Source: Saprospira grandis (GTDB lineage Bacteria; Bacteroidota; Bacteroidia; Chitinophagales; Saprospiraceae). Taken from it: a stretch of DNA of 64,000 nucleotides. A program made the translations under genes and the position numbers. Positions within the stretch are counted from its first letter, which is position 1; each line of letters begins with the position of its first letter. This document shows, piece after piece, positions 35,757 through 38,735 of this stretch. The stretch is taken from contig NZ_CP110854.1 of NCBI RefSeq assembly GCF_027594745.1, positions 1,372,241-1,436,240 on the forward strand, read 5' to 3'. The notes under the pieces are model-generated. The model saw only the letters and a program-made list of their open reading frames with translations. It made no database searches and was not told the DNA's origin.

Positions 35757-35820
35757 TAGTCTGTTTTTTGGTTTGCTACCAATAAGTTAGGGCAAATAAC
35801 ACAGCTATACAATAGGCCAA

Positions 35821-35859
35821 GGGCCCTGAGCGCAGCAGTTGCGCTCAGGGCCCTTTTTG
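35821..35859 (+). terminator. Strong orphan stem-loop with T-run (terminator-like), no adjacent plus-strand CDS
   Basis: GGGCCCTGAGCGCAGCAGTTGCGCTCAGGGCCCTTTTTG has a perfect 14-bp stem. Confidence 0.45.
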
Positions 35860-36171
35860 TTAAAATAAGGTTAACTGTTGCCACTGTGATTGATGTTACT
35901 ACATCAATGCATTTTATCTCGGATATTTGTCACAGACAACTAGCCAAAAGGGCTAGTTCAAGAAAAGCAAAATAAAAAAATCGCTTTTGTCAATTTGGTC
36001 ACAAAGATATACGATAAGCCGCCGTACTTTTGTAATGAACAAGAAAGGAAACGGCAAGTTTATAAAATAAAATTTCAGCTTGTCACAAAAGTCACAAACA
36101 ATCTTTTAGAACCGCCTTATCTTTGTATCAACAACAATTTACTAAACATCACACTTAAAAATATAAGCATT

Positions 36172-37578
36172 ATGAAAGTTGAACAGCTGTATACCGGATG
36201 CCTTGCACATGGCGCTTACTACATCGAATCTGAGGGCGAAGCCGCTATCATTGATCCTCTTCGCGAAACTGCTCCTTATATGGAAATGGCAGAAGAGCGT
36301 GGTGCAAAGATCAAGTACATCTTGGAAACTCACTTTCATGCCGACTTCGTTTCGGGACATATCGATTTAGCTAAGAAATCTGGCGCCCAAATCGTTTTTG
36401 GACCAACCGCTCAAACAGGTTACGACGCTTATGTAGCTAAAGATAACGAAGAGTTGAAACTCGGAAAGTTGCGCATCAAAGTATTGCACACCCCCGGCCA
36501 CACTCAAGAGTCTAGCTGCTTCCTCCTACTCAATGAAGAAGACGAACAACTGGCTATCTTTACTGGCGATACACTCTTCATTGGAGATGTTGGACGCCCT
36601 GACCTAGCCATCAAGTCTGATGTTACTATGGATGACTTGGCTGGTATGCTCTACGACTCTCTACACAACAAAATCATGCCTCTAAACGACGACCTCACTG
36701 TTTATCCTGGTCATGGCGCTGGTTCTGCTTGTGGTAAGAATATGTCTAAAGAAACTTATGCTACTTTGGGCAACCAAAAAGAATTCAACTACGCCCTTCA
36801 GCCTATGAGCCGCGAAGAGTTCATCGTAAAAGTAACTTCTGGTTTGGCTACGCCTCCTCAGTACTTTGGCCACAATGCCATGATGAACAAAGCTGGCTAC
36901 AATAGCTTTGATGAGGCCCTCGCTCAAGGAACTACTCCTCTAGATGTAGCCGCCTTCAAAGCAGAAATGGCTAAAGGTACTCTCATCCTCGATACTCGCC
37001 ACCAAGATACTTTCGAAAAAGGCTATATCGCAGGCGCTATCAATATCGGTCTCGACGGGAGCTTTGCCCCTTGGGTTGGCGCTATGATCGAAAACCTCAA
37101 ACGTCCCATCTTGCTTATCGTTCAAGAAGGCCGTGAAGAAGAAGCCGTTACTCGCCTAGCCCGCGTTGGCTACGATAATGTTGTCGGTTTCCTAAAAGGA
37201 GGTATCGATGCTTGGACAGCCGCTGGCGAAGAAGTAACTATTGTAAATACAGTTTCTGCCACCGCCCTTGCCGAAGCTATCGCTAAAGGCGATGACGTAA
37301 AAGTTATCGATGTTCGCAATGAAGGAGAGTTTATCTCTGAGCACTTGCTCGTAGCGACTAGCTACCCCCTAGCCGAAATGGCCAAAAAAGTAGAAGACCT
37401 TGACAAAAAAGCCACTTACTATGTACACTGTGCTGGTGGCTACCGCTCAATGATTGCTTCTGCCGTTCTACAAAATATGGGCTTCGAAAATATCATCAAC
37501 GTAGCCGGTGGTTTCAAAGCTATTAGCGAAACCGACGCTCCTAAGAGTGACTACGTTTGCCCTTCTACCCTACTCTAG
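36172..37578 (+). CDS. MBL-fold persulfide-dioxygenase-like domain fused to rhodanese (sulfurtransferase) domain(s)
   Basis: Metallo-beta-lactamase motif ETHFHADFVSGH and C-terminal rhodanese active-site loop YVHCAGGYRS. The true start is probably MKVEQLY at 36172, not the upstream ATG at 35995. Confidence 0.7.
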   Translation: MKVEQLYTGCLAHGAYYIESEGEAAIIDPLRETAPYMEMAEERGAKIKYILETHFHADFVSGHIDLAKKSGAQIVFGPTAQTGYDAYVAKDNEELKLGKLRIKVLHTPGHTQESSCFLLLNEEDEQLAIFTGDTLFIGDVGRPDLAIKSDVTMDDLAGMLYDSLHNKIMPLNDDLTVYPGHGAGSACGKNMSKETYATLGNQKEFNYALQPMSREEFIVKVTSGLATPPQYFGHNAMMNKAGYNSFDEALAQGTTPLDVAAFKAEMAKGTLILDTRHQDTFEKGYIAGAINIGLDGSFAPWVGAMIENLKRPILLIVQEGREEEAVTRLARVGYDNVVGFLKGGIDAWTAAGEEVTIVNTVSATALAEAIAKGDDVKVIDVRNEGEFISEHLLVATSYPLAEMAKKVEDLDKKATYYVHCAGGYRSMIASAVLQNMGFENIINVAGGFKAISETDAPKSDYVCPSTLL

Positions 37579-37640
37579 ACAACACCCTTTAGAGTACACC
37601 CAATTAAAACAAGTCGATAGTCTTCTATCTTAATTAAAAT

Positions 37641-37685
37641 GCGCTAACCAGCTAGGGAGCTAGCTGGTTCAGCGCCTTTTTCTAC
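37641..37685 (+). terminator. Terminator hairpin after MBL-rhodanese gene
   Basis: CGCTAACCAGCTAGGGAGCTAGCTGGTTCAGCG followed by CCTTTTTCT. Confidence 0.45.
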
Positions 37686-37702
37686 CTAAATTTCAATTCA
37701 TC

Positions 37703-38308
37703 ATGTTCTTATTTGCGCAAGAAGTTACAGACATGTTGTCTCAACCTTGGCCTTGGTATGTCTCCGGGGCACTGATCGTTCTGGTTATGCAACTGCTCGT
37801 TTTTAACGGTAAATCATTTGGCGTTTCCGCTAGTATGCGCGCCGCCTGCTCTGCTATGGGCGCCGGCAAAAGCGTCTCTTTCTTCGATTTTGACTGGAAA
37901 GGTAGCCAGGGCTGGAATATGCTCTTCGTTATCGGTGCCGCTATCGGAGGTTTTATCTCTATGCAGTTTCTCTCTGGCGATGAACCTATGGAACTAGGTG
38001 CCAAGACGATTGAGTACGTAGAAAGTATCGGTTTCTCTGCCCCCACAGCAACCAACGGAAAAACCGATCTCTTGCCCCAAGAAATTAATGATCCCAACTT
38101 TGTTTTCTCCGCTAAAGGCCTATTTATCCTGATCTTTGGTGGCCTACTGATCGGATTTGGCGCCCGCTATGCCGGCGGTTGTACCTCTGGACACGCTATT
38201 AGCGGCCTGTCTCAACTCCAAATCCCTTCTCTTATCGCTGTGATTGGCTTCTTTATCGGTGGCCTCACAATGACTTATTTTATCTTGCCTTTGCTATTTG
38301 GCGCCTAA
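37703..38308 (+). CDS. YeeE/YedE-family sulfur-transport membrane protein (N-terminal half-type subunit)
   Basis: Conserved motifs GKSFGVSASMRAAC and AGGCTSGHAISG from the sulphur-transport DUF395 domain. Confidence 0.65.
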   Translation: MFLFAQEVTDMLSQPWPWYVSGALIVLVMQLLVFNGKSFGVSASMRAACSAMGAGKSVSFFDFDWKGSQGWNMLFVIGAAIGGFISMQFLSGDEPMELGAKTIEYVESIGFSAPTATNGKTDLLPQEINDPNFVFSAKGLFILIFGGLLIGFGARYAGGCTSGHAISGLSQLQIPSLIAVIGFFIGGLTMTYFILPLLFGA

Positions 38309-38735
38309 ATCTATCTACAATATGAAATTTGTAAAATATCTAGGTCTAGGCCTCCTCTTTGGCATGGTCATGACCAAATCTGAAGCAGTATCTTGGTACA
38401 GAATCCAAGAAATGTTCCTCTTCGATAATTTCCATATGTACGGTATCATCGGTACCGCCGTGGTACTCGGAATTATCACTACGGCCCTGATTAAAGCACT
38501 CAAGCTGCAAACCTTCAAGGGCGAAGAAATTAAGTTCCACCCCAAAAATATGTCTATTCCACGCTACCTCATCGGTGGTATTATTTTCGGCCTCGGCTGG
38601 TCTATGACCGGCGCCTGCCCCGGCCCCATGTATACCCTACTAGGCCAAGGCTACTGGGCCGTACTCATCATTATCGCATCTGCTCTAGTCGGTACTTACC
38701 TTTATGGCGCCCTGCGTGCCAAATTACCGCACTAG
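38298..38735 (+). CDS. YeeE/YedE-family sulfur-transport membrane protein (second subunit)
   Basis: Motif GACPGPMYTLLGQG. Overlaps the upstream partner gene by 11 nt. Confidence 0.6.
   Translation: MAPKSIYNMKFVKYLGLGLLFGMVMTKSEAVSWYRIQEMFLFDNFHMYGIIGTAVVLGIITTALIKALKLQTFKGEEIKFHPKNMSIPRYLIGGIIFGLGWSMTGACPGPMYTLLGQGYWAVLIIIASALVGTYLYGALRAKLPH

Follow-up and report, generated by a model that had tools for sequence, protein, structure and literature searches.

In E. coli, class II promoters regulated by CRP or FNR carry a binding site centred at position −41.5, as at galP1 and at FNR-activated promoters. Dedicated sensors of reactive sulfur species (RSS) have been assigned only to the families CsoR (CstR), ArsR (SqrR/BigR) and Fis (FisR) (2026 review, PMC13467558). 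No Crp/Fnr-family persulfide sensor was found in the literature, nor was any description of how Bacteroidota control their sqr and persulfide dioxygenase (pdo) genes, and the nearest precedent is a CRP-like motif in Chlorobaculum. In Chlorobaculum tepidum, this motif lies upstream of the sulfide-induced genes psrABC and cydAB, and a protein with a Crp/Fnr domain has been proposed to bind it; the candidate binder is missing from other Chlorobiaceae (bioRxiv 10.1101/172254). The locus described here lies in a 64,000-nt stretch of DNA from Saprospira grandis, phylum Bacteroidota (NZ_CP110854.1, 1,372,241–1,436,240), which is called the window and in whose coordinates all positions below are given. 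It comprises a gene for a CstB-type fusion of a persulfide dioxygenase (PDO) with rhodanese domains (36172–37578, plus strand), followed by two genes for the halves of a YeeE/YedE-family transporter (37703–38308 and 38322–38735, plus strand). Upstream of these genes are two repeated CRP/FNR-type boxes with associated promoter elements, which are probably tandem sigma-A promoters subject to class II activation by a Crp/Fnr-family protein encoded elsewhere in the genome, with sulfide or RSS as the most likely signal. Related loci are designated by L-numbers, of which L001 is S. grandis DSM 2844 and L002 and L003 are Saprospira metagenome-assembled genomes (MAGs).

The 415-bp divergent intergenic region that separates the cstB-like gene from a gene for a 140-aa protein contains two copies of one ~48-nt module, identified in a repeat search and located 93 bp apart. 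Each copy reads TTGTCA-N6-TCACAA followed, at a fixed distance, by CCGCC-N-TAnnTTTGTA. The inverted repeat TTGTCA-N6-TCACAA has exactly two perfect matches in the 64 kb, at 35987 and 36080, and its inner 16 nt, TGTCA-N6-TCACA, correspond to the CRP consensus TGTGA-N6-TCACA except at one position. These CRP/FNR-type sites are referred to as box 1 (TGTCAATTTGGTCACA, 35988–36003) and box 2 (TGTCACAAAAGTCACA, 36081–36096), each on the plus strand and each with one mismatch to the consensus. In Bacteroidota, the −7 box that sigma-A recognizes, TAnnTTTG, spans −12 to −5 (PMC9723704). A −7 box of this type is found downstream of both boxes on the plus strand, TACTTTTG at 36025–36032 for the predicted promoter P1 and TATCTTTG at 36118–36125 for P2, which would place the transcription starts at ~36037 and ~36130, respectively. 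Because each box starts 37 nt upstream of a TAnnTTTG that spans −12 to −5, the boxes would extend from about −49 to −34 and be centred at the predicted position −41.5. The −33 position holds CAAAGA instead of TTTG, so that the −33 element is missing and the box stands in its place. The window contains two instances of the composite of a box (at most one mismatch), a distance of 37–38 nt and an exact TAnnTTTG, and 100 dinucleotide-preserving shuffles gave none; boxes alone, counted on the two strands, number four against 0.92 in the shuffles.

The initial annotation had described this region as a 400-bp leader containing repeated TTGTC-N3-GACAA palindromes that resemble operators. All of the strings that it quoted are present where it placed them, and the repetition is real and far beyond chance: GTCACAAA occurs four times against 0.89 expected, with three of the four occurrences in this region. 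The repeating unit, however, is the TTGTCA-N6-TCACAA promoter module and not the TTGTC-N3-GACAA operator. For instance, GGTCACAAAG corresponds to the right half of box 1 and TTGTCACAAAAGTCACAAACAA to box 2 plus flanking bases, and TTGTATCAACAA (36121–36132), which had been counted as a palindrome of its own, overlaps the −7 box and the start region of P2. TTGTCNNNGACAA has one exact copy in the window, at 35927, and the sole exact TTGTC-N3-GACAA palindrome in the 64 kb is TTGTCACAGACAA (35927–35939, no strand), which has no −7 box at the module distance and is probably not functional. In DSM 2844, TTGTCACAGACAA reads TTGTAACAGACAA, which breaks this only true palindrome, and no counterpart of it was found in L002 or L003. 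Similarly, what had been taken for a leader is the divergent intergenic region, within which the predicted 5′ untranslated regions would measure only ~42 and ~135 nt. A scan for E. coli-type sigma-70 promoters, which uses the wrong consensus for Bacteroidota, was uninformative (three matches against 2.6 expected), and a search against Rfam (34500–39500, E ≤ 1) returned chance-level matches only and no riboswitch or leader RNA within 35757–36171.

Two additional elements are found in the same intergenic region. At 35886–35901, TGTGATTGATGTTACT combines a perfect TGTGA left half-site with a degenerate right half; it is kept in DSM 2844, has no −7 box at the module distance and may be a weak or relic third site. 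On the minus strand, a perfect TAnnTTTG (TATCTTTG) at 36002–36009 shares positions with box 1 and is a possible promoter of the divergent gene for the 140-aa protein, in which case it would be occluded when the regulator binds.

The modules are conserved in related genomes. DSM 2844 is a close relative (97% identity with the window for the PDO–rhodanese protein and 98% for the intergenic DNA), and in this strain both boxes and both −7 boxes are unchanged, box 1 being 100% conserved, with substitutions between them (CCGCCG to CCGCCC and CCGCC to CGACC). In the two Saprospira MAGs, which have the same flanking genes as the window and whose PDO protein is 65% identical to that of the window, the intergenic DNA is otherwise unalignable, yet it too has a pair of modules, each with a spacing of 37 nt, whose boxes start at 3793 and 3904 (111 bp apart). 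Among 28 orthologous loci for which upstream sequence was available, there are 13 in which the composite immediately precedes the PDO gene or whichever gene comes first in its operon, and boxes orthologous to box 2, with equal spacing, are found in L002–L008, L012–L014, L025 and L026. The aligned loci give the module consensus aTGTGAt-N5-TCACtGA ... TAnnTTTGtatc, and the promoter cores of L012, L013, L032 and L036 have the extended TTTGTATC in common. Overall, the spacing of 37–38 nt and the missing −33 element are held in more than 20 promoters of related genomes.

The genes that follow the module in the sampled loci belong almost exclusively to the sulfide pathway. Besides the orthologous PDO genes, the module precedes a second pdo (L006 and L036), sulP (L025 and L032), tauE (L008, L013 and L014), thioredoxin genes (L016 and L038) and the gene for a rhodanese (L038). 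In L005 (2579–4001), a gene for a type II sulfide:quinone oxidoreductase (SQR; E 3e-123 to human SQR) and the PDO gene point away from each other, and their shared intergenic region contains two CRP-like boxes (3827 and 3874). In L012 (5516–7776), a box with a −7-like element lies upstream of a Tll0287-like gene that is followed by the gene for cytochrome bd oxidase subunit I, which suggests that the regulon includes a sulfide-tolerant terminal oxidase. As predicted from these arrangements, the regulon would comprise the sulfide-oxidation pathway together with such an oxidase.

The products of the S. grandis genes are consistent with this assignment, and the gene set recognized in the initial annotation, a PDO–rhodanese fusion followed by a split YeeE/YedE pair, is borne out by Pfam (Lactamase_B, two Rhodanese stretches and two Sulf_transp open reading frames (ORFs)). 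The 468-aa protein matches PDB 3tp9 over its full length (E 1.2e-72) and PDB 3r2u, which we take to be S. aureus CstB, over residues 4–451 (E 1.4e-64). It has the three parts expected of a CstB-type enzyme: a PDO domain of the metallo-β-lactamase fold, a middle rhodanese-like domain and a C-terminal rhodanese domain. The metal-binding H-x-H-x-D motif is present as HFHAD (residues 54–58), the Cys-Gly of the mobile loop is found in GAGSAC187G188KN, and the rhodanese active site reads HC420AGGYRS. In CstB, C201-G202 is self-S-sulfonated and the group is passed to C408 to give thiosulfate (2026 study, PMC12934615). C187-G188 and C420 were matched to C201-G202 and C408 of CstB through the motifs and the 3tp9 alignment rather than through a direct alignment with CstB.

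As for the transporter, its first half (201 aa, containing a GGCTSGH motif) and its second half both score above the Pfam cut-off for PF04143 (Sulf_transp), and the second half also matches DUF6691; the other cysteine-containing motif of the transporter is TGACPGP. The ORF of the second half is open from 38298, with ATG 38322 as the likelier start, which gives 137 aa as in the orthologues. With 39.7 and 25.8 bits against a cut-off of 400 for the NCBIfam TsuA equivalog, the pair is by its sequence a split member of the YeeE/YedE family and not a proven TsuA orthologue. Such a split yeeE/yedE pair lies downstream of the PDO gene in ten loci including the window, and it is also present in L036. 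Judged from these similarities, "persulfide/thiosulfate handling set", the name given in the initial annotation, is a fair label for the operon. Between the cstB-like gene and the first half of the transporter pair lies a gap of 124 nt that contains a 10-bp hairpin (AACCAGCTAG/CTAGCTGGTT, 37643–37664) with a T-run a few bases downstream, which could be an attenuator or an mRNA-stability element.

A candidate regulator is found among the related loci. In five PDO loci (L006, L008, L011, L013 and L014), the genes of the module are adjoined by a gene of the Crp/Fnr family, which is often directly followed by a gap that contains the box. Conversely, when the genomic contexts of homologues of the regulator were sampled, three of five contained sulfur genes (L032, L036 and L038), and no boxes were found in the two without nearby sulfur genes (L034 and L037). 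A complete sulfide island is found in L036 (1–11117), a Flavilitoribacter-like metagenome scaffold, on which two cstB-like genes, trx, yeeE, yedE, a porin gene, crp, cydA, cydB, HMP and an SQR-like gene occur together with boxes at 1536 and 9193. The linked regulator has 210–220 aa and consists of cNMP_binding and HTH_Crp_2 domains. In an alignment with E. coli CRP, S-R189-E190-x3-R194 of the regulator falls on R180-E181-x3-R185 of CRP. R180, E181 and R185 are the residues with which CRP reads TGTGA, and the CRP-like R-E-x3-R of the linked regulator therefore fits a box of the CRP type.

The same alignment points to a possible sensing site, since a pair of cysteines falls at G71-E77 of CRP, where the cAMP pocket has its phosphate-binding cassette. 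The two residues, C84 and C90, do not vary among 15 members, the most distant of which is 39% identical. Among the 120 matches listed as homologues of the Lewinella Crp, all of which are at least 63% identical, G-x2-C-x5-C is present in 120 of 120, and 118 of 120 have three cysteines in total. The C-x5-C pair is also retained in the alignment with PDB 3dv8, the best solved relative (E 1.7e-19). The regulator reaches no NCBIfam equivalog (49.7 bits for CRP against a cut-off of 266) and has no N-terminal cysteine cluster of the FNR type. From sequence comparison, the S. grandis promoters thus appear to belong to a conserved, undescribed sulfide regulon of Bacteroidota, with a linked Crp-family regulator that carries a plausible thiol-sensing signature. 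A bolder extension, which we regard as possible but rather doubtful, is that this subfamily, with its C-x5-C in the cyclic nucleotide pocket, CRP-like R-E-x3-R and three cysteines, constitutes a fourth, Bacteroidota-typical class of dedicated sulfide or persulfide sensor. Its members would act as class II activators through thiol chemistry (persulfidation or a di- or polysulfide bridge) where CRP binds cAMP, and the tandem promoters of S. grandis would be one of their targets.

Taken together, the following mode of control is proposed. A dimeric activator of the Crp/Fnr family, encoded elsewhere in the S. grandis genome, would bind the 16-bp inverted repeats that replace the −33 element in P1 and P2 and would recruit RNA polymerase to the TAnnTTTG boxes. 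Expression of the cstB-like gene and of the split yeeE/yedE genes would thereby be turned on; persulfides would then be oxidized to thiosulfate, and the product would be moved across the membrane. The signal is most likely sulfide or RSS, because the regulator gene and the module sit among sulfide-pathway clusters in related Bacteroidota. Several points weigh against this proposal. The window contains no Crp/Fnr gene, as judged by Pfam on ~30 ORFs and by tblastn with four linked Crp proteins, so that the cognate regulator would have to be present elsewhere in the genome. The box is missing from eight loci belonging to Chitinophaga and its relatives and from a few more, so that this regulation does not extend to every copy of the operon. 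Position 4 of the box, a G in nearly every other locus, is a C in both S. grandis copies. The predicted transcription starts were placed from the consensus, and repression would in principle also be possible from a site that overlaps the −35 region. Finally, class II activation is established for sigma-70 of the E. coli type, whereas no documented case was found for sigma-A of Bacteroidota.

Repression was the mode of control favoured in the initial annotation, in which the TTGT...ACAA palindromes were operators of a dedicated repressor. Such a repressor, whether S24/LexA-like, of the ArsR family or of another kind, would be released when persulfides build up, in the manner of CstR or SqrR/BigR. 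FisR is indeed the only well-studied dedicated persulfide sensor that is not a repressor (PMC13467558), and the boxes overlap the promoter, where a bound repressor could occlude it. Activation nevertheless fits better than repression with the geometry of more than 20 promoters, in which the box lies at a fixed 37–38 nt from the −7 box and a −33 element is lacking, and the palindrome on which the repressor model was built is unique in the window and not conserved. Neither of the suggested proteins is a convincing candidate. The S24-peptidase gene (33829–34677, minus strand), which had been called divergent, is separated from the operon by the genes for an MIase-like protein (35005–35301, plus strand) and the 140-aa protein (35334–35756, minus strand); it is present in L001 and absent from L002 and L003, which have the same flanking genes and keep the two-box promoter. 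As for ArsR, in Chitinophaga an ArsR gene adjoins the PDO gene, and its product is 53% identical to ArsR1, which is encoded in the window by one of two adjacent ArsR-family genes (4360–5049). These genes, however, lie 31 kb away from the operon, and their products do not have the cysteine pair of SqrR/BigR: ArsR2 has one cysteine and ArsR1 has none. The PDO-adjacent ArsR of Chitinophaga has no cysteine either, and neither it nor ArsR1 would therefore sense its ligand through thiols. In addition, the ArsR and PDO genes of Chitinophaga have a terminator-like hairpin between them, and no box is found there. A dedicated repressor is accordingly quite improbable. What can be kept of the earlier proposal is that the motifs are predicted protein-binding sites for a dedicated regulator whose gene is not in the window. 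Only slightly less improbable than a dedicated repressor is that the boxes are targets of a general regulator, a Crp/Fnr protein sensing cAMP, oxygen or redox state that would tie the operon to carbon or oxygen status. TGTGA-N6-TCACA is a generic site of the CRP subfamily, Bacteroidota have many Crp/Fnr paralogues, and the regulator of S. grandis is itself only postulated. Genes for cytochrome bd, which are typical low-oxygen genes, follow a box in L012 and lie beside the regulator gene in L036. On the other hand, the composite precedes almost only sulfide-pathway genes in the sampled loci and is absent at L034 and L037, where sulfur genes are missing; the window of 64 kb contains only the two boxes; and the linked regulator, which has no FNR-type cysteine cluster, scores far under every NCBIfam equivalog cut-off.

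A further question concerns the intergenic hairpin at 35819–35860 (plus strand), which had been reported in the initial annotation as an orphan perfect 14-bp stem-loop that might terminate a small RNA. The hairpin is real and perfect, although its stem is longer than reported, with 16–17 bp (35819–35855), a loop of 3–5 nt and a TTTTTG tail (dG −34.6 kcal/mol). With a GC-rich stem and a T-run on the plus strand only, it has the features of a rho-independent terminator. No plus-strand ORF of at least 20 aa ends within 120 nt of it, it has no other copy in the 64 kb that would mark it as a dispersed repeat, and it belongs to no Rfam family. If the intergenic region gave rise to a separate small RNA that ended at this strong terminator-like structure, the absence of an ORF end nearby would be accounted for, and Rfam gives a weak match to BjrC68 that stays below threshold (19.9 bits, gathering score 39). 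This match, however, essentially consists of the hairpin and its T-run, no TAnnTTTG-type promoter is found in the 500 nt upstream on the plus strand, and between strains the region varies most in the sequence 5′ of the stem. Conservation is likewise of little help to the small RNA, since L002 and L003 have no hairpin at this position, L002 having one directly after its MIase-like gene. In S. grandis, the MIase-like gene has no terminator of its own, and termination of read-through from it is an equally simple explanation. Between strains, the loop (35835–35839) reads GCAGT in the window and ACTCC in DSM 2844, which is the reverse complement with one change. The loop was thus inverted between the strains, which says nothing on selection, and the identity of the stem is uninformative, as the divergence of the region predicts only ~1.2 changes over 32 nt. 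A small RNA is therefore unlikely, and our best guess, held with low confidence, is that the hairpin stops plus-strand read-through before it reaches the activator-dependent promoters.

The remaining neighbours of the operon lie outside the module. The divergent 140-aa protein is conserved in L001–L003 and has no Pfam or NCBIfam match and no helix-turn-helix; its family is unknown. Downstream of the operon, a weak TPP-riboswitch-like element (39073–39169; 29.5 bits, Rfam gathering score 54.3) immediately precedes thiS (39223–39438) and thiC (39446–41341) and is probably a divergent but real THI element. Two other genes in the window, for a PALP (cysteine-synthase-like) protein (28–933) and for a PLP enzyme of Cys/Met metabolism (26708–27877), belong to families that can make or consume H2S, and neither is preceded by a box.

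Bacteroidota are abundant in sulfidic guts, sediments and marine particles. For this phylum, the analysis yields a cis-element that is sharply defined and fixed in its promoter geometry, a family of candidate regulators that carries a sensing signature and a predicted regulon that would include a sulfide-insensitive cytochrome bd. For the window itself, operator-like palindromes are replaced by two concrete predicted promoters and a predicted mode of control.

Compared with the class II promoters regulated by CRP and FNR in E. coli, the S. grandis promoters have the same 16-bp repeat of the TGTGA-N6-TCACA type, with a predicted centre at ~−41.5 at which it overlaps or replaces the upstream hexamer, and the linked regulator is a relative of CRP and FNR in which the three base-contacting residues are retained. 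They differ in that the core is the Bacteroidota TAnnTTTG rather than TATAAT, that the regulator has a cysteine pair where CRP binds cAMP and that two modules are arranged in tandem, with starts and activation being predicted here. With the cst operon of S. aureus (tauE-cstR-cstA-cstB-sqr), the locus shares a CstB-type PDO–rhodanese with its Cys-Gly loop and rhodanese cysteine, and sqr, tauE and a rhodanese are found in related loci. The regulator of cst, however, is the CsoR-family CstR, which acts by derepression, whereas a Crp/Fnr protein and activation are predicted here, and the S. grandis transporter is a split YeeE/YedE. SqrR/BigR and FisR also control pdo, sqr and yeeE-type genes, the former (ArsR family) sensing through a cysteine pair and the latter being an activator (PMC13467558). 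They differ from the present system in protein family, DNA site and mechanism of polymerase contact, FisR being a sigma-54 activator, and the ArsR proteins of the window do not have the cysteine pair. For the linked regulator, PDB 3dv8, a Crp/Fnr-family regulator from structural genomics, has the same C-x5-C pair and is the best solved relative; it is ~30% identical, as estimated by eye from the HMMER alignment and not computed, and its entry name gives no function, ligand or DNA site. The motif of Chlorobaculum tepidum is likewise a CRP-like site at sulfide-regulated genes, including those for cytochrome bd, and comes from a sister phylum (bioRxiv 10.1101/172254). It differs from the S. grandis module in having no N6 spacer, variable positions and different genes, with no reported link to pdo or cstB.

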